Below the pieces are notes generated by a model. That model saw only the letters and a program-made list of their open reading frames with translations. It had not been told where the DNA came from and did no database searches. 64,000 bases of DNA from Centroscyllium fabricii. Taxonomy: Eukaryota. Made by a program: the position numbers and the translations under genes. This document shows positions 1 to 44,825 of the stretch, piece by piece. Each line of letters opens with the position of its first letter. Within the stretch, counting starts at the first letter, position 1. The stretch lies in the NCBI GenBank assembly GCA_051313645.2, contig JBNRSN020000133.1:1302001-1366000 (forward strand). Reading direction: 5' to 3'.

Positions 1-168
1 TTTAATATTCGGCAGCTAAAGTCTCAATGCGAAGTCAGCAAATTCACAGCTGAACTCAAGCTAGAAGAATAATGCAATTTGCTAATGCAGCCAAAATATT
101 ACACGGAATGCTCTCCACGGTATGCACCTAAGATATAGAAATATCTAGAAGTTACAACAATATAATAT

Positions 169-296
169 GATGTGAATGTGCCGGTGTTGGACTGGGGTTG
201 ACAATTGCAAGAAGTCACACAACGCCAGGTTATAGTCCAACAGTTTTATTTTAAATCACAAGCTTTCGGAGCTTCTGCCACTTCGTCAGGTGAAAG
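169..296 (-). mobile_element. Penelope-like element terminal fragment with hammerhead-like core
   Basis: Same sequence as the repeat at 21052-21242. Minus strand reads TCAC-CTGACGA-...-CGAAAGCTT-GTGA, the minimal hammerhead-type signature of Penelope-like termini. Family assigned from recall, not a search. Confidence 0.6.
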
Positions 297-304
297 AGAA
301 ACTG

Positions 305-518
305 ACTTAAAGAACGCACATATGGGAGGAAGGGAGAAATCCGATCTCTCGCACATCTAACCTTAGCAGAGATGGACAGGGCACACAAAGGCTTATTAAC
401 ATATTTTAAAACGTGTTAAAATATGTTAATACGCCTTTGTGTGCTCTGACTATCTCTGCTAAGGTGAGATGTGGGAGATCAGATTGCTCGCTTCCTCCCA
501 TATGTGCGTTCTTTAAGT
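305..518. repeat. ~105-bp-arm inverted repeat (fold-back/MITE-like palindrome)
   Basis: 305-409 is the reverse complement of 416-518 with scattered mismatches (ACTTAAAGAACGCACATATGGGAGGAAG... / ...CTTCCTCCCATATGTGCGTTCTTTAAGT), with a ~6-nt loop. Confidence 0.9.
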
Positions 519-522
519 GCTT

Positions 523-1000
523 TTATAAAACCTCTTGGTTTTTACATTCTATATCTCTGGTGATAATACCGAGAATCCCATCAGCTTTTTTTACAGCCTT
601 ATCAAGCTGCGGTGCTACTTCACTCTTCTCTCCCACTGCACCGAGCCCACTTCCATTCAGAGGATCATTATTATTCCTTTTACAGAAACCCGTCAGCTCA
701 TACTTGCTGATGTTTACTTCCAACTGCCAATTTTCAGCTCATTCCTCCATTGTAACAATATCACTCAGCATCTTCCGTTGGTCTTCCCAATAATGAGCTC
801 TGCCTCCAGTTTTGGTAAAATGCTGACATTTCGAAACACTCACTTTCCGCCAAGACCCAATTCATTGATATACGTGGCAAACAGAAGAATCCCCAGAACG
901 GATTCCTGTGGGAAGCATCTACCCATTTCCAACTGCTCTCAATATAATGAGCTCTCTGCTGTCTCTCTACTAATATCTATTAATCCAATGTGCTTTCCTC
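523..1000 (-). mobile_element. Old CR1 LINE ORF2 fragment
   Basis: Minus ORF contains AVKKADGILGIITRDIECKNQEVL, matching the CR1 ORF2 C-terminal region seen in younger copies in this window. Confidence 0.7.
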
Positions 1001-1142
1001 TCCTTAATTCTCTATTCATTACCCGTTACTTAATGTCCTCTGTAGTAACTTGGCAAAGGCTTTCCTACTGTCTAGTTACATTACAACATAGATTACTGAA
1101 GATCGGTAAAATAAAGCACAATCCAAACTGCAGGACTAGACA

Positions 1143-1520
1143 GAAACATAGAAGATAGGAGCAGGTGTCGGCCATTCGGCCCCTCGAGCCTGCTCCGCCA
1201 TTCAATGAGATCATGGCTGATCATCCAAACCCAGTACCCCGCTCTGCCTTCTCCCCATATCACTTGATCCCTTTACCCTTAAGAAATATATCTAACTCCT
1301 GCTCGAATATATTAAATGAATTGGCCTCTACAGCCTTCAGTGGAATAGAATTGCACAGGTTCACCACTCTCTGGATGAAGGAGTTCCACCTCGTCTCTTT
1401 CCAAAAGGGTGTACCCCTTATCCTTAGACTGTGACCCCTGGCTTTGGACTCCCCGGCCATCGGGAACATCCTCCCTGCATCTAGTCTGTCTAGCCTTGTT
1501 AGAACTTTATACATTTCAAT
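1143..1520 (-). mobile_element. CR1 LINE 3' end
   Basis: Minus ORF LIEMYKVLTRLDRLDAGRMFPMAGE...RGHSLRIRG...FIQRVVNL, plus the CR1 3' UTR with (TTCTATGT)-type tail. Confidence 0.9.
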
Positions 1521-1889
1521 CAACGCGGCCGGTGCCAAGCTGTAGATCCGTGATTACCGCGGGGCGGTCACTCAGTTTCTCAGTAAAGGAATGAGATTTT
1601 CCGTAGGATTTGTTTTGTGAGCGCTTTTTCAGGGTTAACCCTGTCAAGCTGACATATAAGCGTGGATATTATTATTAAAATAGTATTAAAGCATCGCAAA
1701 ATGATTAAACTAGGGATATATGGTAACACAATCAGCGTGGATGCAAACAAACCAAAGACAGTTACCGTGAAGTGTGTTCTCTAGATCTCCACTGATCTGT
1801 TCATGTTAATTGGTGCAATTGCCAACAGTGTGACTATGGGTATTGGGGACACAATGCTGCGCCTCACAGCCCGTGAACTATACTCACTG

Positions 1890-1950
1890 CTATTGGTCCC
1901 TCACTCCGCCCCATGCAAATGAGCCCAGTCTCTCGAGGCTCATAAGGCCG
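1890..1950 (+). promoter_or_regulatory. IgNAR V promoter: reverse CCAAT, GC box, perfect octamer ATGCAAAT (1913-1920), weak TATA-like CATAAG
   Basis: ATTGG 1892-1896, CTCCGCCCC ~1904-1912 and ATGCAAAT 1913-1920 lie ~120 bp upstream of the leader ATG, in heavy-chain orientation. Confidence 0.8.
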
Positions 1951-2039
1951 CTGCTCAGACACACACGGTTACACAGAGCAGTCGCTGTTGGGCTCTTGTG
2001 TTTGCTCCGTTTAAAGTGCTCCCTGCTGGTGAAGGAATA

Positions 2040-2082
2040 ATGAATATTTTCTGTGTTTCCGTCCTTTTAGCCTGGTTACCAA
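2040..2082 (+). CDS. IgNAR: IgNAR leader (signal peptide) exon, MNIFCVSVLLAWLP(N)
   Basis: ATG at 2040, hydrophobic peptide resembling known IgNAR leaders (MNIF...LLAWLPN), phase-1 donor A|GTAAGT at 2083. Confidence 0.95.
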
Positions 2083-2222
2083 GTAAGTTTTGTTTGGTAA
2101 AGAGATTACATGTTAATTGGATAACATTGTGAGGCAGCGTCTACATTGTAGAAATGTCCTTGCCTTTAAACTCGTATATTGTTTCAGATACGTGATGCAT
2201 TAAATGTATTTTCTCCATTCAG

Positions 2223-2496
2223 ATGCCTTCGGTATACGAGTAGACCAAACACCAAGAACGGCAACGAAAGAGACAGGCGAATCCCTGACCATCAACTGCG
2301 TCCTAACTGATACCAGCTATGGTTTGGGCAGCACATACTGGTACCGGGAAAATCCGGGTGCATCAAACCGGGAAAGAATATGGATTGGCGGCCGATATGC
2401 TGAAACAGTCAACAAGGGAGCAAAGTCATTTTCTCTGCGAATCAGGGACCTGACCGTTGAAGACAGTGCCACGTATATCTGCAACGCATATAGTAT
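2223..2496 (+). CDS. IgNAR: IgNAR variable (VNAR) gene segment, germline, type IV/IIb-like
   Basis: Acceptor TTCAG at 2222. Translation (N)[45 protein letters not shown]...[36 protein letters not shown] shows the VNAR framework with CDR2 deletion and only the two canonical Cys. Followed directly by an RSS. Confidence 0.98.
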
Positions 2497-2535
2497 CACA
2501 GCAATGGAGTTGGCGGTTCCTGCAATACACAAACT
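2497..2535 (+). promoter_or_regulatory. V 3' recombination signal sequence (23-bp spacer)
   Basis: CACAGCA + 23 nt + ACACAAACT. Confidence 0.95.
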
Positions 2536-2724
2536 ATCAGCACACTTTGCTAGAAGATGACGGGAACTATTTTTCTGTTGCTTACTCAGGAAGAGAAGAT
2601 GCTCAGTATTTTGGAGGGATAATGCTCTTGGCTATAAAACAAATCCTGACAAGAAGTATTGAGTTAGGAATCTGGTTTGCAGCAAGTGACTGGACCCCAG
2701 GTTCTTGGACTGATGCACATGGAA

Positions 2725-2801
2725 CCTTTTTGTACTGGTCTGTGTGACTGTGGGTATACGACACACAGTAATGAATCTTGGATTCCCGTAATACATAAAC
2801 T
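2725..2801 (+). other. IgNAR: IgNAR D1 segment (coding 2753-2763, GGTATACGACA) with 5' 12-RSS and 3' 22/23-RSS
   Basis: CCTTTTTGT-12nt-GACTGTG | GGTATACGACA | CACAGTA-22nt-ACATAAACT. Confidence 0.93.
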
Positions 2802-3126
2802 GTCCCCACCCCTCTTCATAAAACGTTGGTACAGATTATCCTCTCGGTGGCTAATAACCTCACGGTTAAATGCTCATTGTATCTGTCAGACACTGGGTGG
2901 AATATTGAAGCCTTTCCTCTGTTAATTTCTGTGATTTTCAATCAATTTTATGATCATTTTTATAATGGAACATTGATATTTCGCCAGGACTTTTATGAGT
3001 GGCTGGGAATTAGAAACATCTACGGGGATCCCAATATAAAGGCAATGATTTGAATCATATTTACTGCAATTTTAAGTCACTATCTTGGAATATCCGAAGG
3101 ATTTTCTGCAATATTTGCAACAATGG

Positions 3127-3195
3127 AGTTCTTGTGCTGGAGTGAAATGATGTGTATACTCGAGTGACACAGTGATTCGGGCCATGGCACAAACC
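3127..3195 (+). other. IgNAR: IgNAR D2 segment (coding 3155-3167, TATACTCGAGTGA) flanked by 12-RSS on both sides
   Basis: AGTTCTTGT-12nt-TGATGTG | TATACTCGAGTGA | CACAGTG-12nt-GCACAAACC. Confidence 0.92.
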
Positions 3196-3505
3196 TCTCC
3201 AACTGTTATTTGCTTTCCTATCGTGAAGGTGGCTGCATAATGTGCTTCTTACCCATGGATGTTGCTGCATAGAGCGTGAAATCAATTCCAATTCGAACTT
3301 TGGTTGAAATCTATCCGCATTCCCTGATATTAAATCAATGAATTATCATCATATTTATTACAGGAGTTGGCATTGCACATAATGAATATCTGGATGGATA
3401 GTAACTGACGGAAATGAAGATTTATTAATGATGCCAGTATCTTAGAAAGGTCCTTGTAGCAGTGATGTTTTGGTGTATTTATTCCAGGATCTTTCGTTCA
3501 ATGAC

Positions 3506-3544
3506 CCTTTTTGAACTGGGCTGACTGGGAGCTGACTGACTGTG
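3506..3544 (-). promoter_or_regulatory. J 5' recombination signal sequence (23-bp spacer)
   Basis: CCTTTTTGA + 23 nt + GACTGTG immediately before the J coding region. Confidence 0.92.
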
Positions 3545-3582
3545 TACCTACGGAGCTGGCACCGTGCTGACTGTCAACCCTG
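3545..3582 (+). CDS. IgNAR: IgNAR J segment, TYGAGTVLTVNP
   Basis: GAGTVLTVN motif typical of VNAR FR4; phase-1 donor G|GTAAGT at 3583. Confidence 0.97.
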
Positions 3583-3779
3583 GTAAGTGACCTCTCGCTG
3601 CTTTATTGTGAAGATTTTGATCATAGGATTTATAAAGAATCAGTTTTGTCATTAAAATTGCCTGAAGCGCAAAACACAATAGCCAAAGTTCTTTTTCAAG
3701 ATTCGCTTATCTTCACTGTCAATTTATTGAGATTAAAGTTAAAAATGGGTTTCAAAAGAGATTTTGCCTGACAATAAAA

Positions 3780-3935
3780 GAAACCTATATTTAAATATAA
3801 AACGTACCTTCAACAAACCTGTATTTAAATATATAAATATAAAACTTACCTCCTACCAAAACTGTATTTAATTATAAACGTACCCCCAAACATCCCTGTA
3901 TTTAAACAAAGAACTTACCTCTACAACAAAAATGT
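3780..3935. repeat. AT-rich degenerate tandem repeat (~4 units of ~35-40 bp)
   Basis: Recurrent AAACCTRTATTTAAATATAAAACKTACC motif. Confidence 0.65.
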
Positions 3936-4411
3936 AATTATAGATAGAAATTTGCTGTCATGCATTATGTAAGATGGTTATTTAAATAGATTGTGATAGT
4001 TTAAACTGAAGAAGCGGAACCAGCCCAGTAAAATTGCTCCTTACTGAGGTGTCCCAGTACATCTTAGAATTAAAACAACTCTTGGGCGAGGAAAGTTGTC
4101 AGCAACCAAGGAATGTATGCAACGTGTCATTGTACAACATTTTGCCTGACAATTTCCGTCCCCTTCCAAAAGCGCCCCATATTAAATAAAACAACGTTAC
4201 TAAATTAATATCAGCGCAGATCCTGCAAATATGTTGTTCCTTCGAATCTTGTCATTTGTGGCTCTGGATTAATGGCGCATGCTTCAGTGACCGAGCTGTA
4301 AATCTGGGAAAGCCAGTCCCCTTGATGCGCTGTGTGTGTAAGGTTGCGCGAGCAGCAGAGAACTTGGAAACCACAGTGGGTTTCACGGTAATAAGTTGGC
4401 TCTTTCTCACT

Positions 4412-4866
4412 GTCCGCTGTGGCTCAGTTTGTAGCCTTTGAGTCTGGAGATTGTTAGTTCAAGTCCCATTCCTGAGATTTGATCAGAATATATCCAGGCT
4501 GACCCTCCAGTGTATTGCTGAGGGAGCTCTGTATTGTCAGAGGTGCCGTCTTTTGGATGCGATGTTAAAACCGAGGCCCCGTCTTCTCTCAGATAGATGT
4601 TAATCGATCCCATGGCACTATTTCGAGAGAAGATTAGGGGAGTTAACCCCGCTGTTCTGGCCAATATTTATCCCTACATCAAGATCACAAAAACAGATTA
4701 TCTGGTCATTTTCACGTTGCTGTTTGTGGGAGCTTGCTGTGCGCAATTTTGGCTGTGTTTTCCAGTTTACAACAGTGCCTGCACTCCAAAAGTACTTCAT
4801 TGGCTGTGAAGCATTTTGGTACGTCCGGTGTTCGTGAAAGGCGCTATGTAAATACAGTATTTCTTT
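4412..4866 (+). mobile_element. tRNA-derived DeuSINE (SacSINE1/AmnSINE-like)
   Basis: tRNA-like head (TGGCTCAG...GTTCAAGTCCC), central AGAGGTGCCGTCTTTTGGATG...GATCCCATGGCACTATT...GCTGTTTGTGGGAGCTTGCTGTGCGC block, and an L2-like tail TGAAAGGCGCTATGTAAAT. Recognised from recall. Confidence 0.75.
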
Positions 4867-5370
4867 GTATTTTCTATGTACAGAAATAAAGTTAGCGGTA
4901 TCTTTGTTAGTTAATGCTTCGAGGAGAATATTGAAGGTTCTGAATCATTGTTTATACTATTTACGGTCCGTTTGCTTATTGTAGTTGAAGAAGCAAACAG
5001 TTTATTGAAAGCCTGAGTCTGGGTTTGATCGCCTGTAAATTCAATCAGCGTTTCGAGGAGAGGAGAATCCCAAAGTTAATGTGCAGAGTCAGGATTTTGT
5101 TGTTGCCATCCCGTGGTCTGGCTATCGAGTGCCTGGGGACTGGACCAGTTAACCTTCGGCAAAGAGGATGGAAGTGGGTTCCACATACAAGGGTATCAAT
5201 CGGACACAGAATCTGATAAAATATATGTAGTCAAAATCCAAATAAGTTGGAAAATGGTAAACTCTATCTGCACCATCCCACCAAGTAATTCCAGGTCAGG
5301 TGAAGCTGCTCCACACTCTCCCCGCAGGAGAAGGTACACCGCGAATATTACAGAACGACAGACCAGCTGA

Positions 5371-6162
5371 TAAGAACATACGAACTAGGAGCAGGAGTAG
5401 GCCAATCGGCCCTACGAACCTGCTCCGCCATTCAATAAGATCAAGGTGATCTGATCCTAACAACCAACCTACTATCACAGAAGCTTCGCTGAATCTAACA
5501 TAATTAGACAGACACAAGAGGAGCAGGATCAGGCTACACGCTCACTGGGCCCGCTCCACTACCCATAGGGCCATGACCGATCTGAACCTAGACTCATGTC
5601 CAAATTCCGGCCCGCTCCCCGTAACCCTTAATCCCTTTTACTATTGGAAACTGTCTATTTCTGTTTTAAATTTATGTAATGATGTAGCTTCTACAGCTTT
5701 TTGGGGCAAAATCTTCCATGGACCTACCACCCTCAGAGTGAAATAAGTTCTCCTCATCTCAGTTTCGAAAGAGAAGCCTCTTATTCTAAGATTATGCCCC
5801 CTAGTTCTAGTTTCACCCATCATTGGGAACATCTTCCGCGCATCCACCCGATCCAACCCCTTCACAATCTTATATGTTTCAATAAGAACTCCCCTCATTC
5901 TTCTGAACTCCAATGAGTAGAGTCCCAATCTACTCAACCTCTCCTCATATGTCCAAACCCTCATCCCTGGGATTAACCGAGTGAACCTTCTTTGTACTGA
6001 CTCGAGAGCGAGTATGTCCTTTCTTAAGTATGGACACCAAAGCTGTATGCAGTATTCCAGGTGCGGCCTCACCCATACCTTGTACAACTGAAGCAATACC
6101 TCCCTATGTTTTTATATTATATCCCCCTAGCAATGAAAGCCAACATTCCATTTGCCTTCTTA
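5371..6162 (-). mobile_element. CR1 LINE 3' fragments
   Basis: Minus ORF 5641-6096 (LQLYKVWVRPHLEYCIQLW...RRMRGVLIETYKI) plus CR1 3' UTR/tail pieces. Confidence 0.92.
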
Positions 6163-6629
6163 GGGCCTTCAGAGTGGCCCCTGACCTGAAGCATGTCTGA
6201 TGTAAAAAACCCAAATTGTGGCAGTCAGTAACATGAGGAGAACAATGTCTTTCAATGGGGCGTGGGATGCAGGTAGGAGAGAAACATTGCTCAGGTTCAG
6301 GGTTTCCTCGCAGAGACAGAACACGTCACTGAACAAAAATGAAACACATTCTAAGAAGGCGATGATGTGCGTGGTGAGGAAGGCCGATTGGTTCATTTAC
6401 ACGGCTCCATGGGGATTGTTGCACCCTGGAATTCCCTCCCAAAAACACTGGGTCACCCCAGTTTTAACAGCGCTAAAACAAGCACCTTTGCCGTGTAACA
6501 TGACAGGGCCAACCATTTTACTCAATCCGCTACATTAGCCCAGAACCTAACTGGTGTATGTAAAATGAGTTCACCCATCTGGTAGAAAAGTAACCTGATG
6601 AACGGCTGTTGTTAATTTGAGTCGAGCGC

Positions 6630-8242
6630 CCAGTTGCCATGGGTTGGAGGATGGCTAATGTCACCCCACTGTTTAAAAAAGGAGCTAGAGAGAAAAAGAG
6701 GTAGTTTCGACCGGTAAGTCTGACATTGGAAGTTGGGGAAATTCTAGAGTCCATTATAAAATACGTAATTGCAGAGTACTTGTAAAATAGTGACAGGATC
6801 GTACATTGTCAACATGGATTTACAGAAGGTAATCTACTGGAATTTTTTGCGGATGTAGCAGTCCAAAGATGTGCAGGTTAGGTTGATTGGCCATGATAAA
6901 TTGACCCTTAGTGTTAGGGGGATTACACATGTGGGGTTACGGTAATAGGGTGGGATATGTGTCGGTGCAGGCTCGATGGGCCGAAATGGCGTCTCTCTGC
7001 ACTGTTGGGATTCTGTGATTCTATGATTCTAACTGTTAGAAAGGTTAAGGGAGAAACAGTGGATCTGGTGTATTTGGACTTTCAGAAGGCTTTCGATAAG
7101 GTTTCACGTAAGAGATTACCGTGCAAAGTTAAAGCACACAGGATTGGGGTTACGGTATTGTCTTGGTTAGAGAACTGTTTGGCAGACAAGGAAAGAGTTG
7201 GAATAAACGGTGTTTTTCTGAGTGGCAGGCAGTGACTAGTGGGGTACCTCAGAGATGAGTGCTAGGACACCAGCTATTTACAATATATATATAATATATG
7301 TAACTCGATGTTATGTCACAAATTTGCAGCCGACACCAAGCTCGGACGGCGTCTATGCTGTGAGGAGGATGTCGAGAACTTCCAGTATGATTTGGACAGG
7401 ATGGGTGGTTGGGGCAGATGCATGGCAGATGCATTATAATGCGTATAAATGCGAAATGGTGGCAAAAGCAGGAAGACAGGTTATTACCTGAACGGCAATA
7501 GATTGGGAAAACGGGAGATGCAGCGAGACTTGTGTGTCCATGTGCACCAGTTGCGGAAGGTAAGCATGCAGTTACAGCAGGCGGTTAAGAAGGGAAATAT
7601 TTTGTTGGCTTTCATAACTAGAGGATTCGAGTAAATGAGCAAAGATGACTTGCTGCAGTTGTATAGGGCCTTGGGGAGAACAGACCTTCTATATTGTGCG
7701 CAGTTTTTTGTCACTTTCTCTGAGGACGTATTTTCTTGCCATGGAGGGAGTGCAGCGAAGACTCACCAGACTGATACCTGGGTAAGCCGGAATTATGTAT
7801 GAGGAGAGATTGGGATGATCAGGCTTATATTCGCTAGAGTTTAGAAGAATGAGTGTGGATTTCATTGACACGTAAGATTCTAACAGGAATAGACTGACTA
7901 GATGATGGAAGGATGTTCCCGATTGTCGGGGAGTCCACAACCAGGGGTCACAGTCTAAGGATAAGGTGTAAGCCATTTAGGACTGAGGTGAGAAGGAATT
8001 CCTTCACCCAGAGAGTGGTGAACCTGCGGAATTCTCTGTCACAAAAGGCCGTTGAGGCCAACTCATTAAATATATTCAAGAAGGACTTAGATATATTCCT
8101 TAAGGCTAAAGGGATCAAGGGATATGGGGAGAAAGCAAGGACACGATGCTAAATTTGGATGATGCGCCATGATCTCATTAAATGGCGGATGGGCTCGATG
8201 GGCCGAATGGCCTACTCCTGCTCCTTTATTTTATATTTCTAT
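6630..8242 (+). mobile_element. Degenerate CR1 LINE (RT to 3' end), interrupted by an HE1 SINE fragment (~6860-7030)
   Basis: VDLVYLDFQKAFDKV, RDLCVHVHQ and FTQRVVNL motifs across several frames; CR1 3' UTR at ~8150-8240. Confidence 0.88.
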
Positions 8243-8929
8243 AAGCCTGGCTCCATGAGGTGGGCTACGGTGATTTTAGAGCTAATTTCCTTCACCGCCT
8301 CCTCTGACTGTACAAACCGAGCGAAGCAATGCTATTAATTTATCTGTCAATGATATTCACATTCCCACTATCATAGGGTAATAATTTTATATAATCTTCC
8401 AACTTGCCCAATGATTGTGGAATTAGTACCTGTATTTATAGTCGTTGTCCAGCTTCATGACTTGTTTACTTCCAGATTGCTATTTCATTACTTCCTCTGT
8501 CATTGTTTTAAAGAGCTGTTTCGTTGTCTTCGCTCAGCCTTTTGTGAAACTTCATCAGTTCTAATTTAATATTCATATAGGGCAATGATTGTAAAATTTT
8601 CAAATATGTGATCCTCATCTCTGCTGGAAATGCAGAATGGCAAATCATGCCCAAAACTTAATTTCTTCATTACCTGCAACATCCTTAAGCACATTCCATC
8701 TTTCTCGTTGATCCAGCTTTGAGCAAAGTTTCAGAATTTATTTTCACTGTAACGGTACCGATAGCTTCAGAATGGGTTTTCTGTACACTGGCTTTAGACA
8801 CGCATTATTGTTCCCTGGCCTAAAAATTGAGAGAAATCTCCAACACAACAATATTTATTCAAGCAAGGTTCCAGTTTCAAACCAGTTCCTCAAGTCAGCA
8901 AGAACGACTTGCCGCAAGCCGTTAACTTA

Positions 8930-9425
8930 ACTTCAGGCTGGGGGTTCAGGTCTACAGCAGGTTACAGAAGGCGAGATGTGAAGACAAGCACACGAAATAT
9001 AAACTTGAGGCATTCGGACGCAATACAGATCAGTGCGGACTGGGCTGGTGGTCAATTGGAACTGGAGCAGATGGGACAGGGTTAGCAGTGATTTGGATAA
9101 ACTGGTGTTTCTGCATGGTGGGAGATGAAATGGTGGCAGGTCGAGCATTGCAGCAACCAAAGGTGAGGACGGAATGTCAGAGGGTTCCAGTTCTGGTGGG
9201 TTGAAGTAGGATTGCTGGCAGGTGATGTTACACAGGTTGATGAAGACAGTCATTGTGATGGAAATATTTCGGGTGAAGGTATACTAGGCTCCATTATAAT
9301 GCACACGCAGAGGCTGCAAATAGTTTGCTTGTGCCTGACACCGTGGCCAGGGAGGCGCGTAGAATTAGTGGTCTTGGAACAGAGTTTGCGACGGGGAAAA
9401 ATATTAAAGGTAAAGCTAGCATATA
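8930..9425 (-). mobile_element. Old L2 LINE fragment
   Basis: Similar to the reverse complement of the L2-like region at 27950-28400. Confidence 0.55.
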
Positions 9426-9549
9426 CTATATGTTTTGGTAGCCTGTCACATATATAGTGAGAGGAAACAATCACTGATTACCTAAATATATATATTTGTA
9501 TTTGGAGCCTTGTCTGCAAATTGGCCCAGGTGTATTCACTGAGCCCTTC

Positions 9550-11460
9550 TCATAGAAACATAGAAACATAGAAAGTAGGAGCAGCAGTCGGCCATTCGGC
9601 CCTTCGAGCCTGCTCCGCCATTCAATGAGATAATGGCTGATCATTCAAACCCAGTATACCGCCCCTGCCCTCACCCCATATCCCCCGATCCCTATCGAGC
9701 CTACATCAACACATACCCCACCCAATCCCCATGTGGCATTAGATTAATAACGAGCAATTTTCTAACGCTTTCCGCATTTAAGAACATAAGAAATAGGAAC
9801 AGCAGTCGGACAATCGTCCCCTCGAAACTGCTCCGCCATTCAATAAGATCACAGGTGATCTGATTTTAGCCTCAACTCTACTTTCATCCTCAATCGAACC
9901 CGAAACCATGTGATCTCCCGGGAGAGGCGAAAAGCCAGATAAAAACCCAGGCCAATTTGGGGGTGGGAATCTGCAAACATTCCTCTCCGACACATTTAGA
10001 CGATCAAAACTTTCCAGGAGATCATGTTGGCCCTGAATTTCCTGCAGAACCTGCCTACTGTAAGATGTGATCTCCACCCCAGCCAGGTACAGGCCCGATT
10101 TACTCTTGAAGGAGTCCAGCGAATCATCATGCACTGCCCCAGTTTGCAGCCTGTTCCCGAGGTCTCCACTTCTCCCTGTGAAAAGAACCATCTCCTGACA
10201 TCTAACATAGAATTAGAACACAAGAAATATGAGCTGGACCAGGCCACACGGCCCCTGGGCCCGCTCCGCCACCCACAGGACTATGGCCCATCCGAACCTA
10301 GACTCATGTCCATTCCCTGACCGCTCAGTGGAACCCCTAATTCACTTTACTTCTAGGAAACTGTCGATCGCTGCTTTAAATTTATTTAATGATGTAGATT
10401 CCACAGCTCTCTGGGGTAGACAATTCCACAGATTTAATAAGAACATAAGAACATAAGAAGTAGGAGCAGGAGTAGGCCAATCGGCCCTTCGAGCCTGCTC
10501 CGCCATTCAATAAGATCATGGCTGATCTGATCCTAACCTCAATTTTATTTTTACTCTCTACCCCGCCCAAACCAATTTAATCACCTAGGAGAGGTGAAAA
10601 ACCAGACATGGCCGATCTCAACCTAGCCTCACGTCCACTTAACAGCCCGTTCACCATAACCCCTAATTCCCTTTAATTCCAGGAAACTGTCTATCTCAGT
10701 TTTAAATTTATTCAACGTAGTAGCTTCTACAGCTCTCTGGGGTAGCAAATTCCAGAGCTGCACCACCCTCTGAGTAAAGAAGTTCCCCCTCATCTCAGTT
10801 TTAAAATGGGACCCCTTTATTTTAAGATTATGCCCCCTAGTCCTAGTCTCACCCACCATTGGGAACATCCTCACCGCATCCACCCGATCAAGCCCTCTCA
10901 CAATCTTAAATATTTCAATAAGATCGCCTTTCATTCTTCTGAACTCCAATGAGTAGAGGCCCAATCCACTCAGCCTCTCGTCATATGTTAGCCCCCTCAT
11001 CCCCGGAACTAACCTAGTGAATCTTCTCTGCACTGCCTCGAGAGCAAGTATGTCCTTTCTTAAATAGGGACACCAGAACTGCACGCAGTATTCCAGGTGT
11101 GGTCTCACCAATACCCTGTACAACTGCAACAAGACCTCCCTGCTTTTATACTCATCTCAGTTTTGAAAGGGAAGACGCTTATTCTCAGATTATGCCCCCT
11201 TGTTCTAATCTCCCCATCATTGGAAACATCCTCACCACATCCACCCGATCAAGCCCCCTCACAATCTTTTTGTTCTAAAAGTTTGCATCTCATTCTTCTG
11301 AACTCCAATGAGTAGAGGTCCAATCTACACAAACTCTCCTCATATATCAAACCCCTGATCCTCGGAATTAACCGAGTGAACCTTCTTTGTACTACCTCGA
11401 GAGAAAATATGGAGAACAAATCTATATGTGGTATTCCAGGTGTCATCTCACTAATATCTT
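9550..11460 (-). mobile_element. Cluster of stacked CR1/HE1 3' fragments
   Basis: Repeated (AAGAACAT)n tails with GGAGCAGGAGTAGGCC 3' UTRs at ~9550, 9780, 10215 and 10440; ORF 10629-11132 is a CR1 ORF2 C-terminus; a further fragment at 11150-11460. Confidence 0.88.
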
Positions 11461-12334
11461 TGCAAGAAGAGATCTCCCTGCGATGTCATACTTATCACTG
11501 ATCAGCAATTTAAAAGGCGCTTTATTTATCACAGTCACGGCTCTCCCTCTTGGTTTATTCTTAACGCTCTTGCTGCAATATACACACATTGCATCATTCT
11601 CATGTCGTTCTATGTGAATTAAACAACTTCTTCAATAGGACCAATGTCAGCAAGCTTGCGATGGCCGAAAGTTGCATGTGAGGACACCAAGTATCGAACC
11701 ACTATTATTGCATAGAGAGTCCTGAAATGATGATGAGGTCATTTGCAAGTTGTGGAAGGTTATATAGGTTATTATTGTGAACTCACTTCGATAAGCTGAA
11801 AAACTAAGAGGGAAGTTAAAAGGTGGCACGTGAGAAATCAAAAGATATGATTAGGTTAAAAATGAAGATGAATGATTGAAGGAGATACTAACCAACGACT
11901 TCGCTCGATTTTTGCAACAAAATGCGTTATTGTGATTTGAAATATACACGGGAAGAATGCGGAGCAGCTCAATATGATAACTATAGATAAAGAACGCGTG
12001 CTGAAAACAATGATGAAAGTCAAAAGATGGCCTGTATCCTAGAATGTTGAGAATTGACATGTAGCAAGTATTTGATGCTCTGACCACAAACCTTCAAACA
12101 TGCTTGGTATGAAACTTGTGCCAGAGCACTAATATATTATCTTTGTTCAAGAAGGGAGAGAAGTAGAACTGTGGGGCAGTCAGCCAATCGACAGAGTGGG
12201 TCATTTTCTACAGTCAGAAATTAACATTCACTAACAGAGACTTCATTTAATTAAAGACAATGATCACGCGTCTGTAAAAGGCAAGTTCTCCCTGACAGAT
12301 ATGTAGAGTTCTTCGAAGAACTCTGCACATTTCC

Positions 12335-13255
12335 ATTTCAGTTCTGTGCACCACACCTCAGGAAGGAGAAATTAGACTTGAAGGTGGTGCAGTGCAGATT
12401 CACTAGAATTAAACCAGGGCTAAAAGTGTTAAATTATGTGGACAGGTCACACAGGCTAGGCTTCTACTCTCCTAAATACAAAATATTAAGGGGTGAATTA
12501 AAAGATGTGACTAACATGATTAAAGGATTTAATAGTGTGGATAGAGAAAATATTTCCTGGGAGTGTCAAAAACAAGGGAACATAACCTTAACATTGGAGC
12601 TAGAGCTTTCAGGGATGAATTCCAGTAGCACACCTTCACAAATCTCAAGCTGAAATCTGGAACTCTATCCTTCAAACGGATATTGAGTTTATGTCAACTG
12701 AAAAGAGCAAAAATAACATCAATAGTTTTTTGTCTGAATGGAGGAAAGTAAGCTCGAAAGTTCCTAAAGTGTCAGTATTCGAAATATATATAATAGGATT
12801 CGAGTACAGGAGCCTCAATATCACAATTTGAAACGGAATTCAGCAGCTCCCAGACAGTTTACTAGATTGGGCAGGTAGATGTCAGATGACTTGCAATATG
12901 GAGAATATAAAGTGCTATATGTTGGGAGCAAGAATGAGATAACATATTCATTAAATTGTAACGTTTTAAAATGAGAAGACGAATAGAGACACAGGGGTCC
13001 AGACAGACAGATCTTTCAAAGTGGAAGGCTGTTAAATCAACATACCGGATTCTCGGTTTTCTCAGCAGCGTTAGCCAATGCTAAAGAGAGAGGATAGTAT
13101 CCTACATTTAAAAATCATTGTTTAGGCCTAAAGTGTAAGGTTCTCTCCCGCTGTTGTCCCTTACTTTTGGAAGGATGTCAAAGCAATGGATAACTTGCAG
13201 CAGCTATTCGCCGAGATAATGCCTCCGATGAGCAGTTTTAGTCATATGAAGAACA
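12335..13255 (+). mobile_element. Old degenerate CR1 fragments
   Basis: ORF KVVQCRFTRIKPGLKVLNY...RLGFYS resembles the CR1 ORF2 C-terminus; a second decayed piece lies at ~12860-13250. Confidence 0.6.
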
Positions 13256-13257
13256 TA

Positions 13258-13925
13258 ACAACAGCAGCAAACTTGCATTTATATAGCGCCTTTAACGCAG
13301 GAAAACGTCCCAAGGTGCTTCACTGGAGGCTTTCTATAGAAAATGTGACACCAAGACACATAAGTGGATATTAGAACAGGTGACAGAAAACTTGGGAAAG
13401 TGCTAGGTTTTCAGGAGCTTCTTAAATGAGAATAGAGAGAAGAGCGATGTAGAGATTTCTTGAAAGAAATCCAGAGATTAGGCGCGAGGCATGGCCGCCA
13501 ATGGTGAATAAATGGAAATCGGAATTGCGCAAGAGGCCTGAATTAGAGGAGCGCAGAGATCTCTGAGGGTTTAGGGCTGGAAGATCTGACAGATACCACA
13601 AGGATTCGATGCCAATGTAGATCAGCGAGTGCTTGATGCAAGTTAGGTTACAGGGAGCACAGCTTGGGATCAGCTCAGGTTTACGAATGGTGAATGGTGG
13701 GAGGCCAGCCAGGTGCACATTGGAATATTCAACTCAGATGTGACCAGGGCTCGGATGAGCGTTTCAGCAGCAGAATTGCTGAATCAGGGGCAGAATCTTG
13801 CAATGTAACAGAGGAAACAAGAGGAGCACTAATGATGGCGAGGATGTGGAGTCTAAACCTGAGCTCAGATTGAAGTTGGACGTGGAGGTAGCAAACAGTC
13901 TGGTGCAGCCTGAGACAGTGGCCAT
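13258..13925 (-). mobile_element. L2 LINE 3' fragment
   Basis: Begins with AACTTGCATTTATATAGCGCCTTT (reverse of the L2 tail); minus ORF contains RSLRSSNSGLL...TIGGHA. Homologous to 33350-33975. Confidence 0.8.
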
Positions 13926-14886
13926 GGACGAGTAGTGGTGTCGGTGCTAGCCATGGAGTATGGGCTCGCTGCTGGCCATGAATTATGGTGTCGCTGCAGG
14001 CCATGGAGTGTGGGGTCGCTGCTGGCCATGGAGTATGGCGTCGGTGCTGGCCATGTAGGAGTATGGGGTCGGTGCTGGGCATAGAGTATGAGGTCGCTGC
14101 TGGCCATGGAGTATGTGGTCGGTGCTGGCCATGGAGTGTGGGGTCGCTGCTGGCCATGGACTATGGCGTCGGTTCTGGCCATGGAGTATGGGGTCGGTGC
14201 TGGCCATGGAGTATGGTGTCGGTGCTCGTCATGGAGTATGGTGTCGGTGTTGGCCATGGAGGAGTATGGGGTCGGTGCTGGGCATAGAGTATGGGGTCGC
14301 TGCTGGCCATGGAGTATGGGGTCGCTGTTGGTCATGGAGTATGGTGTCGCTGCTGGCCCTGGAGTATGGGGTCGGCGCTGGCCATGGAGTATGGTGTCGG
14401 TGCTGGTCATGGAGTATGGGGTCGCTGTTGGTCATGGAGTATGGGGTCGCTGCTGGCCATGGAGTATGGTGTCGGTGCTGGCCATGGACTATGGTGTCGG
14501 TGCTGGTCATGGAGTATGGGGTCGCTGCTGGTCATGGAGTATGGGGTCGCTGCTGTCCATGGAGTATGGGGTCGGTGCTGGTCATGGAGGAGTATGGGGT
14601 CGGAGCTGACCACTCAGTGTGGGGTCGGTGCTAGCCATGGACTAAGGGATTGGTGCTGGCCATGGAGTATGGGGTCGGTGCTGGCCATGGAGTATGGGGT
14701 CGGTGCTGGCCATGGAGTATGGGGTCGTTGCTGGCCATGGAGTATGGTGTTGGTGCTGGTCATGGAGTACGGGGTCGCTGCTGGCCATGGAGAATGGGGT
14801 CGGTGCTGGCCATGGAGGAGTATGGGGTCGATGCTGGCCATGGAGTATGGGGTCGGTGCGGGCAATGGAGTATGGGGTCGGTGCTG
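13921..14886 (+). repeat. G-rich 25-bp minisatellite (GGCCATGGAGTATGGGGTCGGTGCT)n, ~38 units, in the J-C1 intron
   Basis: Tandem units read directly; this array explains the many overlapping repetitive ORFs here. Confidence 0.97.
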
Positions 14887-15806
14887 AAGGAACAAATTGA
14901 AACTCGAGCTTTTTCAAGAGAAGAAATTGTGAGGCAGTACAATTCTGAAGCCTTTTGATCAGCTAAGGTTATAATTTTAAAATCATCAGCCAAAGAAATA
15001 AGAGAGAGATAAGGAGAGTTATTTTATTTTAGAGAGGGCCGTGAGGACACGGGACGTCCTACCAGAAACCGAATTCGCACAATATTTTAAAAACGAGCTA
15101 GACACATATTTGAAAATCGCAATATGGGGAAAGCACACGGAAATAGGGCTGTGGGATAAAATATCTGTTACGTCGCTCCTTAACGGGAACTGCACAATAC
15201 CAGCCCTGATTCTGCAATCACCATGTTGAATAGATACAGGCCGGGAATGGACAAATGCTCCATGTGCGCTCCTGGCGTCCGCCACAAGGGCTTTTATTCC
15301 TGTGTGGATTGACCTTGGGTCTTTCACAGAGCCGGCAGTGGCGCCCTGGGCTGAATGAACTCTTCTGTGCTGTAAATGCTATCGATCCATCAACTAATAT
15401 TACCAAAACCTTACTGCTGTCTCTGATCTCTGAGCTCCGAAGTGAAACAGCTCCATAAGCAGGAACATTAAAATAGGTTATTGGTAACAATAATCGATAT
15501 ACTATTTAACATCTGACCAACAGAGCACGTCACACCATGAGTGCATTTATCATCCTTCAGTCCGAAATTAACAAGTGATCAGAACATTATTTGCATGGTC
15601 ATTTATTACCAGAATATTTTTATCCCAACACGCCCATTGTAATATTGCCATATTTTCTCACAGCTTCAATACACCACAGCCACAAAGCAACAGTAAATTG
15701 TAGTGTGTTAAACACAGAGTCACTGGGAAAGTGGCAGCGCAACTTGGGAATAACCCTTTTCAGGCTCTGGCCTTGGACTCTGTCCTTTTCTGTAATAGAA
15801 CAAGGC

Positions 15807-16210
15807 AAACATAGAGACATAGAATCTAGGAGCAGGAGTAGGCCATTCGGCCCTTCGAGCATGCTCCGCCATTCAATGAGATAATGGCTGATCATCCAAA
15901 CCCAGTACCCCTTCCTGCCCTCTCCTTGTATCCTTCGATCCCTATCGAGCCTGCACCGACACATATCCCACCCTATTCCCGTAACCCCATACATTCAATG
16001 CCCCTAACACTAAGGGTCAATTTATCATGGCCAATCAACCTAACCCGCACATCTTTGGACAGTGGGATGAAACCGGAGCACCCGGAGGAAACCCACGCAG
16101 ACACGGGGAGAATGTGCAAAGTCCACACAGATAGTACCCGAGGCTGGATTTGAACCCGGGTCTCCAGTGCTGTGAGACAACAGTGCTAACCACTGTGCCA
16201 CCGTGCCGCC
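15807..16210 (-). mobile_element. HE1-type V-SINE, full length
   Basis: Reverse complement of tRNA head GGCGGCACGGTGGCACAGTGGTTAGC, V-domain TGTGTGGAGTTTGCACATTCTCCCCGTGTCTGCGTGGGTTTCCTCCGG, and a CR1-type tail. Confidence 0.9.
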
Positions 16211-16225
16211 TTGTAATACAATAAT

Positions 16226-16979
16226 GGCCCAAAAATTAGGGTGACCGCGGGCCGTTCTGGAGCCACTTTCTCACGCGTGTGGGCTCCGAATTACAGGTAG
16301 ATGCTGTTTCCCGGTGCTACCTGCAATTCTGATGAAGGCCAGCGGGGTGTCGCGAGCTGCATCACGTTCTCGGGCGCACCAGGAGGTGCGCAGTATAATT
16401 CCAATTTTTTTTAGAGTTTTTTATCTGTGTAAGTATCGGGAAAGTTACGCTGAAAACCATCAGCATTAACGATCACTTTTTATCAGGTAAATATTTTATT
16501 TTATAGAATTTAAGTATTTTTTCACAGGTTTTTACTTTGTTTAAACTTTAAATACAGGTAAGTATTTTTTAAGCCAGTTAATAGCTTACATTTTTTTTGT
16601 ATTTTTTAATTTTTTCTTTAAAATAGGTAATTTATGTTTGTTAGAGTACTGTTAACAAAAATGTGGTGTTTTTTAACTTTTACTTTGTGTTTAGATGTGT
16701 TTTTGAAGCTCTTCCTTTTCATAACTTACACAGATTTCTCCGTGTAAGTTATGAATGGAGGATTGCTCCCATTCATTGGCTGACTACAGGTCACGTGGTC
16801 CCGCGCGAGATCTCCCAATAACTACGACGTTGAGTTACACCAGCGCGGCACCCGGAGCCTGCAGCATCTGTACAATTCGGGATTTCACATCCCACAATTG
16901 CAGAACGGCAGCAGCGCAGGGTTTGTGTACCTCGGAGGCTTACACTCGCAGGAAGGCTCCGAGGCTATATTTTTGGGCC
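16226..16979. mobile_element. Non-autonomous TIR DNA transposon (Harbinger-like MITE), TSD AAT
   Basis: AAT|GGCCCAAAAAT ... ATTTTTGGGCC|AAT; GC-rich ends, AT-rich core. Confidence 0.75.
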
Positions 16980-17041
16980 AATATATTGTGGAAGGTGAAT
17001 GGATCAGTGACATTTCAGATGCGGTTAATTTTAATAATATT

Positions 17042-18235
17042 GGGCCAGAATTTCCTGCGCTCCAGAGGAGCTGCACACGCACAGAGGGGTTCCAAAATGC
17101 ACCGTGTGATGAACGCACGGGGGATGCCCACGGAACGGAGATTTCCAATGCTCAGGGAGAAGAGCCCTCAGCATCAAACGCAGGAGTGAGTTGCACCCAG
17201 AATTTGCAATCCAAAAGGGTGATTTTTGAAGAGTGATTCTCTGTGCAACTGGCCCACAAGCTGCACCCGGGAAAAACAGTAGTAAACTCGTGCGGGAGGG
17301 ACAATATTTAGTTACTAAAGCAGGTAAGTTAATTTTTTTACCTTAATTTTAATTTTTTACAGTTTTTGGGAGTAATGTGGCCAGATCGGTAGCGTTAATT
17401 TTTTAAGGGCGGCATGGTGGCACAGCGGTTAGCCCTGTTGTCTCACAGCACTGGAGACCCGGGTTCAAATCCAGCCTCGGGTACTATCTGTGTGGAGTTT
17501 GCACATTCTCCCCGTGTCTGCGTGGGTTTCCTCCGGGTGCTCCGGTTTCCTCCCACAGTCCAAAGATTTGCGGGTTAGGTTGATTGGCCAGGATAAATTG
17601 ACCCTTAGTGTTAGGGGGATTGAATATGTGCGATTTGTGTCATTGCAGGCTATATGGGGAGAGGGCAGGGGTGGGGTACTGGGATTGGATGATCAGCCAT
17701 GATCTCATTGAATGGCAGAGCAGGCTCGAAGTGCCGAATGGCCTACTCTTGCTTCTATGTTTCTAAGTTAAAGTTTAAAAAAAAACAATTCAAAGCCGAT
17801 ATTAAGTTAATTTACCTGTTTCAAATCGCTAATTTTTAAAGTTAAATTTCTGAATTTTTTAACTAGCTGTAATAAAAAATCTAAGATAAAAAATGGCAGT
17901 CTTACATAGCGTTTCTTCCTCTGAGAAGCTGCTGTGCCCGCGCTGCTCCCCGCCGAGTCGGTGAGTGCAGCTCCGCACGTCCCTGCTCTCACAAAGGTCC
18001 GACTCGGGATCTGTGCGCATTTCTTTATTTAAATTAGATATCTGGGGCGTTTTATATTTCAATTTGGGATCTGTGGACGGGGCATACATTGCGCACCTAG
18101 CGTGGCTGGACTGCCACGCAGCGCAGGAACGGGGAGGAAAGTCAGGGAGCAACATCTGTGCGATGTTGGTGCGTACGATAGGTGTCCGCAGGGTCCTAGC
18201 GCACGCACCAACCTGCACAGACGAAAACCTGGCCC
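17042..18235. mobile_element. Non-autonomous TIR DNA transposon (Harbinger-like MITE), TSD ATT, with nested SINE
   Basis: ATT|GGGCCAGAATTTC ... GAAAACCTGGCCC|ATT. Confidence 0.75.
17407..17765 (+). mobile_element. HE1-type V-SINE nested in the MITE
   Basis: tRNA head, V-domain and CR1-type tail. Confidence 0.9.
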
Positions 18236-18449
18236 ATTGTCTTATATATATATATCCCATGTGTGTTAAACAATTCTGAGCCAGTGCCTGCGAGCCAATC
18301 ATATTATCAGCATCAATAGCTGGTCCCTACTTTTCAAAGTATTTCAGGTGGTGTCAAATTTCACAGCGATGTTAAGTGAAGTAAGACAAAAGGACAATTA
18401 GCCACTGACAATAAGTTCATTACATAAACGAAGAAATACTTGGATTTCT

Positions 18450-18610
18450 ATCATACCTTTCCGACCTCAAGACATCCCAAACCGACTTAAAGGAAATGAG
18501 GAACTTTCTGAAATGCAGTCATTGCTATAATATAGGAAACACGACAGTCAATTTACGCACAACAAGCTCCCACCATCAGCAATGTGATAATGACCAGGTC
18601 ATCTGCTTTA
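18450..18610 (-). mobile_element. DeuSINE 3' fragment just upstream of C1
   Basis: Reverse complement resembles 4700-4850 (CAGATGACCTGGTCATTATCACATTGCTGATGGTGGGAGCTTGTTGTGCG). Confidence 0.65.
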
Positions 18611-18702
18611 TACGTTTGTAGAGGTATACATTTTGTCCAGCACATGGTGGAAATGGTCCGATCGTCATTATAGAGACAGTAAGACTTTTTTTGTTATTGT
18701 AG

Positions 18703-19023
18703 CACCACAACGCAATCCACCAATCATCAGTCTCATCTACTCTGCAACTGACGAACTGAGAGAAAATGGTTTTGTCCAACTGCTTTGCCTCATCAGCAAA
18801 TACCAGCCAGAAAGCATTGGAGTGAGCTGGGAGAAGAACGGAAATGCCATACCGTCTGGCTTTACTACCTCAACACCAGCTAAAAATTCGAACGGAGACT
18901 TTAGCTCCACCAGCTTCCTTCAAGTCCCTCTTCAAGACTGGGTCAGCGGTTCTGTGTACAGCTGCCAAGTGTCCCACTCGGCAACCAGCACTAACCAGCG
19001 GAAAGACATTAGATCAAAATCAG
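18703..19023 (+). CDS. IgNAR: IgNAR constant domain C1 exon
   Basis: Acceptor TTGTAG; APQRNPPIISLIYSATDELRENGFVQLLCLISKYQPESIGVSWEKNG...VYSCQVSHSATSTNQRKDIRSKS; C1-set Cys-Trp-Cys; donor G|GTGAG. Confidence 0.96.
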
Positions 19024-20716: not shown

Positions 20717-21019
20717 AGCTCGCAGTATTCCTCAGAGACCCTTCCATGAAAGACATTTGGATCAATAAAACTGCCACCTTGGTGTGCGAAGTTGTCTCTA
20801 CAGTCCCCACGGTGATTGCAATCTCTTGGACAGTGGATGGAAAGATGAGGACTGAAGCAGTTCTGACCGAACCAGGTACAAAATATGGAGACCAGTACTT
20901 GACCATTGGCCGCTTGACCAGCAGTGTGGAAGAGTGGGAGAGCGGGGTTGAATACTCGTGTTCGGCACAGGAGGGCCAATCATCGACTGCGGTATCAAAA
21001 CGAACAGCAAAGGCAAAAG
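20717..21019 (+). CDS. IgNAR: IgNAR constant domain C2 exon
   Basis: Acceptor GACAG; ELAVFLRDPSMKDIWINKTATLVCEVVS...SWTVDG...EYSCSAQEGQSSTAVSKRTAKAK; donor G|GTGGGT. Confidence 0.96.
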
Positions 21020-21292: not shown

Positions 21293-21610
21293 TGGACCCA
21301 GTGATGCCAAAGGTCCGCCTCCTGCCTCCATCGCCAGAGGAGATTCAAAGTATGACAGCCGCCAGTCTCACCTGTTTGATAAGAGGATTCTACCCAGACA
21401 ACATCTCCGTTTCCTGGGAGAAGGACGGAGCTGCTTTGAGCGCGAACGTCACACGTTTCCCCACTGCTCTTGAACAGGACCAGACCTTCAGCACAAGGAG
21501 CCTCCTCACTGTACCTTCAGCGGAATGGAAGAGAGGATCAGCATACACCTGCGCCGCCTCACACCCACCTTCACAATCCACCGTGAAGGGGACCATCATC
21601 AGCCCGAAAG
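21293..21610 (+). CDS. IgNAR: IgNAR constant domain C3 exon
   Basis: Acceptor TTACAG; VDPVMPKVRLLPPSPEEIQSMTAASLTCLIRGFYPDNISVSWEKDG...YTCAASHPPSQSTVKGTIISPK; donor G|GTAGG. Confidence 0.97.
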
Positions 21611-26162: not shown

Positions 26163-26483
26163 ATGATTGTCGTGAGCCTGACATCTCGGTCAATATACTG
26201 AACCCTCCCTTTGAAGAGATTTGGACCAAACGGACAGCCACCATTGTTTGTGAAGTTGTTTACAGCGATTTGGAGAACGTCAGCGTGTCCTGGCAAGTGG
26301 ATGGGATTGGGAGAGCGGAAGGAGTCGAGACTGGTGCCCCAGAGTGGAGTGGGAGTAAATCCGCCATCGTTAGTAAACTGAAAGTCACCAGTGCAGAGTG
26401 GGACAGCGGGGTTGACTTTCTCTGCTTCGTAGAAGACAGTGAATTGCCCACACCAGTGAAAGTCTCCACTAGAAAAGTAAAGG
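26163..26483 (+). CDS. IgNAR: IgNAR constant domain C4 exon
   Basis: Acceptor TTTCCAG; DDCREPDISVNILNPPFEEIWTKRTATIVCEVVYSDLENVSVSWQVDG...FLCFVEDSELPTPVKVSTRKVK; extra N-terminal Cys; donor G|GTAAG. Confidence 0.96.
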
Positions 26484-26911: not shown

Positions 26912-27294
26912 TTGGGGAAATGTATCCTCCTAAAGTCTACGTCCTACATCCATCGGTGGACGAGATTGACACTGAAAAGACGGCTACCCTGGTGTGTCTG
27001 GCCACCGGGTTTTACCCTGCCGAGATTTACATCGCTTGGATGGCCAATGACACCCTTCTGCATTCAGCTTCCCCGAGCCAGGTGGACACCGAGAAGACAA
27101 ACGGTTCCAGCTCAAATGTCAGCAGAATGAGACTGACGGCGGCGGAGTGGACCAGCGGGACCACTTACTCCTGTTTAGTGGGACACCCTTCCCTCACAAT
27201 GAATTTAATCAGAAGTATAAATAAATCTCACGGTAAACCTACTTTAGTGAATGTTACACTTGTTCTAACCGACAGTTTTACATCGTGTACATAA
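26912..27294 (+). CDS. IgNAR: IgNAR constant domain C5 exon plus secretory tail (tail 27233-27294; internal donor after 27232 for the TM form)
   Basis: Acceptor TTTCCAG; VGEMYPPKVYVLHPSVDEIDTEKTATLVCLATGFYP...YSCLVGHPSL...NKSH G|GTAAAC; tail GKPTLVNVTLVLTDSFTSCT* with an NVT sequon and penultimate Cys. Confidence 0.97.
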
Positions 27295-32138: not shown

Positions 32139-32287
32139 GAACACCTTCAATATGTGAAGATCCAGGTGAGCAGGAGATAGAGGAGGAACACCTGGATGAC
32201 GTTGCCGACACTGCAGCCACCGTGATCGCTCTCGTCATCCTGTTCATTCTCAGTATCCTGTACAGCACATTTGCAACCGTCATTAAG
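32139..32287 (+). CDS. IgNAR: IgNAR transmembrane exon TM1
   Basis: Acceptor TTCTAG (phase 1); GTPSICEDPGEQEIEEEHLDDVADTAATVIALVILFILSILYSTFATVIK has an acidic spacer with Cys and the antigen-receptor TM motif LF..S..YST..T..K; phase-0 donor AAG|GTAATA. Confidence 0.95.
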
Positions 32288-44700: not shown

Positions 44701-44825
44701 GTTTCTCTCCCTTGTTATTGCTTCGCACCTTCCTACCATTTATTTCTGGCTTCCTAGGACTTCCCTCTTTTCCACTACCTAGGTTCCCACCCCCCTGCCA
44801 TACTAGTTTAAAACCTCCCGAACCG
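41756..44825 (-). mobile_element. Young CR1 LINE with near-intact ORF2 (876-aa ORF 42042-44672) inserted in the satellite
   Basis: LYLNARSIRNK, VITETW, GDFNL, SDHN, SPGPD, YLDFQKAFDKV, GVPQGSVLGP, FADD; ORF1 C-terminal end (GFKLVWQGGG) at the 5' end; CR1 tail at 41756. Confidence 0.97.

Follow-up and report, generated by a model that had tools for sequence, protein, structure and literature searches.

The 64-kb stretch of Centroscyllium fabricii DNA that we analyzed (hereafter, the window) contains an intact IgNAR gene cluster in which two D segments accompany a V segment of type IV/IIb. It is the one complete open cluster in the window and runs on the plus strand from the leader through V, D1, D2, J, and C1–C5 to a secretory tail and a transmembrane (TM) exon (Table 1). 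With moderate confidence, we take this intact type IV/IIb two-D cluster, which would be assembled by three or two RAG joins, to be the product of an old loss from a three-D cluster, for which a D-D join is the likeliest route.

Table 1. Features of the IgNAR cluster, with coordinates in the window
Feature	Coordinates	Strand	Evidence and remarks
IgH-type octamer, putative promoter element upstream of leader	1913..1920	+	sole octamer match in 1-4500
Leader exon, GT donor	2040..2082	+	in-frame splice to V; resembles leaders of IgNARs P0018 and P0021
VNAR exon, type IV/IIb	2223..2496	+	82% identity to spiny dogfish E06 (PDB 4HGK); Pfam V-set; Cys count
V 3' RSS, 23-bp spacer	2497..2535	+	heptamer CACAGCA, nonamer ACACAAACT
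D1 5' RSS, 12-bp spacer	2725..2752	-	heptamer CACAGTC, nonamer ACAAAAAGG
D1, 11 nt	2753..2763	+	three open forward frames, 0 Cys
D1 3' RSS, spacer 22 bp rather than 23	2764..2801	+	heptamer CACAGTA, nonamer ACATAAACT
D2 5' RSS, 12-bp spacer	3127..3154	-	weak heptamer CACATCA (4/7), nonamer ACAAGAACT
D2, 13 nt	3155..3167	+	Cys-free in both orientations; stop in one forward frame
D2 3' RSS, 12-bp spacer	3168..3195	+	perfect heptamer CACAGTG, nonamer GCACAAACC
J 5' RSS, 23-bp spacer	3506..3544	-	direct reading and RSS scoring
J segment, 38 nt	3545..3582	+	GT donor; only 7 nt before G-A-G motif
IgNAR C1 exon	18703..19023	+	62-76% identity to four IgNARs, 27-32% to four IgWs; AG/GT sites
C2 exon	20717..21019	+	IgNAR identity, splice sites
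C3 exon	21293..21610	+	IgNAR identity, splice sites
C4 exon	26163..26483	+	IgNAR identity, splice sites
C5 exon and secretory tail	26912..27294	+	penultimate Cys, stop; IgNAR match
Transmembrane exon 1	32139..32287	+	tblastn match to P0022; in frame after C5

In-silico splicing of the ten segments and exons from the leader to C5 gave a 674-aa secreted form with no internal stops, and the reading frame of the TM form is likewise open. All exon borders are AG/GT, and frames and splice sites are intact across 30 kb. Taken together, V and C1–C5 are 62–81% identical to four IgNARs and 24–63% identical to four IgWs (for C1–C5 alone, 62–81% versus 27–63%), with the contrast greatest in V and C1. An internal donor in the C5 exon, after window position 27232, would serve the membrane form, and a motif search of the window for the final small TM exon returned no match. 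The organization of one V, two Ds, a single J, and a single set of C exons fits the IgNAR plan, and the IgNAR identity proposed in an earlier, sequence-only reading of this DNA was borne out by the VNAR-type V, the IgNAR-specific C1, the five C exons, and the secretory and TM tails. The J–C1 intron (3583–18702) contains repeats, among them a G-rich 25-bp tandem array (13930–14886), and at 15.1 kb is more than twice the length of the 6.3–6.8 kb described for nurse shark IgM (PMC2435157). Elsewhere in the window, we observed tandem arrays with units of 63 bp (23556–24058), 33 bp (49803–50563), and 53 bp (55666–57618), as well as a 73-bp array (39650–49531) that encloses an 890-aa stop-to-stop frame on the minus strand (42045–44714) with endonuclease and reverse-transcriptase domains (Pfam) of a LINE-type retrotransposon.

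The V segment carries Cys residues only at positions 22 and 83, which are the two canonical ones, and non-canonical Cys is absent. Its CDR1 has neither Cys nor Trp, which makes it type IV and not type III. V is 65–74% identical to the V of the four IgNARs and 24–28% to that of the four IgWs, and a PDB search with it yielded 30 matches at E ≤ 1e-20, labelled VNAR, antigen receptor, or nanobody. The closest V is that of the spiny dogfish type IV/IIb VNAR E06, which likewise has two canonical Cys only; this agreement, together with the 82% identity, upholds the type IV/IIb assignment that had been made from the sequence. E06, with its 10-aa Cys-free CDR3, is an expressed, antigen-selected protein, whereas the Centroscyllium fabricii cluster is a germline locus. 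Beyond the V exon, the reading frame meets no stop across the 23-RSS and up to position 2557 (2497–2557).

Between V and J, the sequence read directly gives the RSS order V-23 / 12-D1-22 / 12-D2-12 / 23-J. Shark IgM has the same spacer order, 23 / 12-D-22 / 12-D-12 / 23. To score candidate RSSs we used our own mismatch penalty (lower is better, CAC required), which is distinct from published RIC models, over the interval 2536–3545, with 2,000 dinucleotide shuffles as a control for chance. The interval holds 16 GTG..CAC pairs. The D1 pair scores 6, and none of the 2,000 shuffles reaches a score of 7 or lower; the D2 pair scores 7.5, and a single shuffle reaches 8 or lower. Across the whole window, D1 and D2 are the only pairs scoring 8 or lower. 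Both Ds thus lie far beyond the shuffles, in agreement with the sequence-only reading, which had counted exactly two RSS-flanked Ds between V and J and had called for an RSS scan of this region. Taken alone, the D2 5′ RSS scores just 5.5, and hits at that level occur at 0.46 per kb in the background, so that it is not clearly above background; we consider it credible because it lies 13 nt from a perfect-heptamer RSS and because there is no legal route to J without D2. By eye, palindromes are seen in D2 (8 nt, 3158–3165) and D1 (6 nt, 2754–2759), and the two Ds have an identical 5-nt word near their 5′ ends. Post hoc hand arithmetic puts chance at roughly 2% and 9%, and these features could represent a P-nucleotide relic of a germline join, an old duplication, or chance.

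We enumerated the rearrangements that the 12/23 rule permits, counting both deletions and inversions, and obtained six legal products. D2 is present in 6/6, D1 is omitted in two, and none joins V directly to J. The rule therefore places D2 in every product and leaves D1 optional, as had been claimed for this locus along with a ban on direct V–J joining. With these RSSs, RAG would need three joins (V-D1-D2-J), or two if D1 is skipped (V-D2-J), to build the gene's one antigen-binding domain; the weak D2 5′ RSS may limit the rate of rearrangement. Without trimming or N bases, V-D1-D2-J joining would yield a CDR3 of 42 nt, which is in frame and encodes 14 aa, and leaving out D1 would give 31 nt (about 10 aa). 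A length of 15–17 aa is described as common for VNAR CDR3s (PMC5192425), and the loop predicted from the germline segments would be Cys-free and somewhat shorter than this; compared with CDR3s from three-D clusters, it would be shorter by a few residues and less diverse. The sequence-only reading, upheld in part here, had suggested that the layout might underlie the short CDR3s of type IV/IIb VNARs, or reflect an ancestral or derived two-D state. The forward frames of D1 and D2 contain no Cys codons; inverted D2 also has none, inverted D1 carries one, and N bases could add one. Cys-free forward D frames fit a type IV V, which has no CDR1 Cys to pair with. We also considered CDR3 lengths of database VNARs as a test of this prediction and rejected this approach: 25 of 28 proteins from the VNAR search, and none of 31 further proteins, could be parsed, only two of the seven lacking Cys in both CDR1 and CDR3 were 11 aa or shorter, one Cys-bearing CDR3 was also 10 aa long, and several entries were apparently engineered.

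To compare D number with other sharks, we used contigs from 4/9 sequencing runs that matched the window at 80% likeness, so that the comparison covers contigs resembling the window. Run X6 (organism B) contributed four low-depth contigs covering 16/30 bins and was left out. Organism A is a related shark represented by runs X1 and X3 (two samples from one study), mostly 90–99% alike to the window, with the listed long pieces about 94–100% alike. The listed X3 contigs tile 2383–2929, 2900–3035, 3006–3308, and 3420–3687, and those of X1 tile 2371–2755, 2764–3203, and 3280–3760. The first X3 contig bridges the end of V, D1, and the D1 3′ RSS, and the third bridges D2; the X1 contig 2764–3203 bridges the entire D1–D2 spacer as well as D2. 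Overlaps are about 30 nt, and V–J is covered by several contigs, none spanning the whole. No contig of organism A was partly matched (0/31 and 0/32), there were no joints, and listed pieces contain at most 12 gap letters each. As to the comparison of D number proposed earlier, organism A is colinear through V–J with no extra D in the listed contigs, which cover copies resembling the window.

In organism C (run X7, about 90% alike to the window), pieces cover 2764–2998, 2969–3073, and 3050–3167, and one contig passes from the exact coding end of D2 (3167) through 11 intervening letters into J (3550). The depth at this joint is 58.5, against 51–55 in its neighbors. Its position at the exact coding end and its single-copy depth point to a germline D–J join, and organism C probably carries a germline D2–J joined IgNAR copy; the joint is seen in one contig with a short side of 29 letters at 80% likeness, from a run whose kind we guessed to be DNA. 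For the X7 copy with an unjoined D2 3′ RSS (3168–3344), the J-joined contig is the only one directly upstream among the matched pieces, which speaks neither for nor against an extra D there. Judging by this joint, the homologue of D2 may be the final D in organism C as well. The IgNAR pre-joins described in PMC8692893, PMC4622739, and PMC3149040 are D-D, unlike this D2–J joint. Judged from these contigs, the two-D layout appears to be common to related sharks; a scan of metagenome contigs for further relatives gave 166 pattern matches and no relatives. Several V variants occur per run in organisms A and C. The J 5′ end is short in the window (3544–3547): in organism C some 10 further letters stand here, and among the organism A contigs some carry 12 gap letters within 3420–3577 and others carry none. 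CDR3 length may depend on the length of J no less than on the number of Ds. Contigs of X1 and X7 break at D1, one ending at 2755 and others beginning at 2764, a hint that alleles or paralogues may differ in D1.

In cluster layout, VNAR, five C exons, and secretory and TM tails, the cluster resembles those of nurse shark type I/II and bamboo shark IgNAR1 (V-D1-D2-D3-J-C1-5). It differs from them in having two Ds, at most three joins, and no non-canonical Cys in V or the forward D frames; three separate RSS-flanked Ds are the mark of the canonical nurse shark type I/II cluster, and only two are found here. Nurse shark type III, in which D1 and D2 are germline-fused, and bamboo shark IgNAR2, 5, and 6, which have a pre-joined D, likewise have two D units and three joins, but in contrast to type III the present V has no CDR1 Cys or Trp, and its Ds are only 11–13 nt long and appear unfused. 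In published descriptions, IgNAR clusters are said to have "up to three D" (PMC5192425), nurse shark type III is a two-unit cluster (PMC4622739, PMC3149040), and 3/4 complete bamboo shark IgNAR clusters are described as two-unit through germline D-D joins, with 12-, 22-, and 23-bp spacers also in use (PMC8692893). Two-unit IgNAR clusters and germline joining are therefore already known, and the mechanism is not new. The shark IgM minilocus VH-D1-D2-JH also has two Ds, about 400 bp apart (PMC2435157). The two Ds here match the pattern of shark IgM/IgW, whereas the VH-type V and light-chain-binding CH1 of those clusters are absent: the V is a VNAR (24–28% identical to IgW V) and the constant exons are those of IgNAR (C1 27–32% identical to IgW).

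Three-D clusters are laid out as 12-D-22/23, 12-D-22/23, 12-D-12, and if this layout holds, the RSS order observed here would result from any of three origins: a D-D join, deletion of a unit, or an ancestral two-D state. We lean toward two Ds being a derived loss because germline joins are documented, one probably occurs in organism C, and dogfish type III is reported not to be pre-joined. Loss of one D unit by joining in the germline has been described as a route to two-unit IgNAR clusters (PMC8692893, PMC4622739, PMC3149040), and spiny dogfish type III clusters are reported in a review as not pre-joined (PMC4622739), which suggests that three Ds also exist outside carpet sharks. A three-D cluster would accordingly be the starting state in this scheme, losing one D unit long ago, most likely via a germline D-D join. 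As to the route itself, we tentatively place a germline RAG join with heavy trimming slightly above the loss of one 12-D-22 unit through simple deletion or unequal crossover, and each of the two, taken singly, is possible more than probable. Counting against an origin by joining, a fusion of two Ds with added N bases would be expected to be longer than D1 or D2; counting against loss, self-comparison of the three spacers found only RSS-like and 10–14-nt matches and no relic of duplication.

The strongest competitor to a derived loss, though in our judgment an unlikely one, is that two Ds are ancestral, with V-D-D-J as in shark IgM/IgW, and that nurse and bamboo sharks gained their third D later, when a 12-D-22 unit was duplicated. 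In keeping with this, D1 and D2 are short and seem not to be fused, their common 5-nt word near the 5′ end is what old duplicates might have, and the layout is common to relatives at about 90% identity. IgM clusters offer a two-D model with Ds about 400 bp apart (PMC2435157), IgNAR is thought to have arisen when a NAR V-D-J unit was placed on an IgW cluster (PMC12227049, PMC4622739), and three-D genomic maps are described from two orectolobiform sharks (PMC8692893, PMC4622739). Reviews, however, give three Ds for the species studied (PMC4279169, PMC12907318), and the unjoined dogfish type III clusters imply three Ds in a second shark lineage (PMC4622739). A D count for NAR-TCR clusters, looked for in the accessible text of PMC3964593 and PMC1845163, was not found there. 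More speculative still is the fuller version of the ancestral scenario, in which type IV/IIb clusters would keep a primitive V-D-D-J with two unfused Ds, three-D IgNAR with a long, disulfide-tethered CDR3 would have come later by duplication, short Cys-free loops of the E06 type would be hard-wired by D number, and RAG germline joins, such as D2–J in organism C, would still be cutting the number of joins.

Less probable again is that the two-D cluster is rarely or never used, as a decaying or developmentally restricted paralogue, a reading suggested by the poor 5′ heptamer of the obligatory D2, whose RSS has a score that recurs in the background at the rate given above. Silent or weakly expressed IgNAR loci are on record, such as nurse shark GcIgNAR3 (PMC11641339), and among the V differences listed for organisms A and C, some fall in CDR1 and HV2 (2322, 2327, 2328, 2348, 2380, 2382). 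Set against disuse are the upstream octamer, the frames and splice sites that remain intact across 30 kb, and the colinearity of spacers and RSSs in relatives. The first three bases of the heptamer (CAC) are those essential for cleavage, and the D2 5′ RSS retains them.

We regard it as very improbable that a third D is present but cryptic, with degenerate RSSs, or that a D unit was collapsed in assembly. Segment spacings for V–D1, D1–D2, and D2–J are 256, 391, and 377 nt, within the 250–500 bp described for shark Ig segments (PMC5192425), which means that any additional D within a spacer would be abnormally close to its neighbors. Of the pairs that avoid both real 3′ RSSs, the best has a score of 17.5, which is worse than chance (39% of shuffles reach 15 or lower), and no plus-strand CAC in 2802–3126 or 3196–3505 scores better than 9, which leaves no third 3′ RSS; the sequence-only reading had found no third RSS pair in these two intervals, and the scan, with two pairs beyond chance and no third, supports it. 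RSS-like orphans at 2872–2899 and 3099–3136 could be taken as traces of a cryptic D, but they are partnerless and occur at background rates: we rejected the former as a 12-RSS (score 7.5; 5.7 per kb in the remaining window) and the latter as a 22-spacer RSS alternative (score 5.5; 0.46 per kb). Also rejected were an orphan 12-RSS facing J at 2541–2568 (score 6.5; 2.1 per kb elsewhere in the window) and, as chance, a 24-spacer reading of the D1 3′ RSS. A collapsed D would be favored by the repetitive nature of Ig clusters, which makes them hard to assemble, and by the gaps described in nurse shark loci (PMC11641339); the window, however, contains no N, and contigs from two other samples are colinear across both D spacers.

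That the V-D-D-J unit belongs to NAR-TCR, IgW, or IgM instead of IgNAR is already largely refuted and carries almost no weight with us: two Ds are the IgM/IgW pattern (PMC5192425, PMC2435157) and the TCR-delta locus likewise contains NAR V genes (PMC3149040), but NAR-TCR V is described as having no WYRK Trp, a Cys in the a-b loop, and then a supporting TCR-delta V (PMC1845163), whereas the present V retains a WYRK-type Trp without the extra Cys, searches of the 64-kb window, including the J–C1 interval, matched no other Ig exon, and C1–C5 side with the IgNARs over the IgWs in identity.

The accessible text of the literature covered, which includes PMC12227049, PMC7916673, PMC6312525, PMC11767079, and PMC9514858 and whose scope lies outside the key primary cluster papers, yielded no type IV cluster with two apparently unfused Ds as short as these (11 and 13 nt). 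The three-D design is the standard explanation of the long VNAR CDR3, yet few species underlie it. With a type IV cluster that is complete, has two short Ds, and is apparently common to related sharks, D number is shown to vary by lineage or by cluster. The cluster allows a direct test of how D number relates to CDR3 length and of whether three Ds are ancestral, and it has a practical bearing on the choice of shark species for VNAR libraries.
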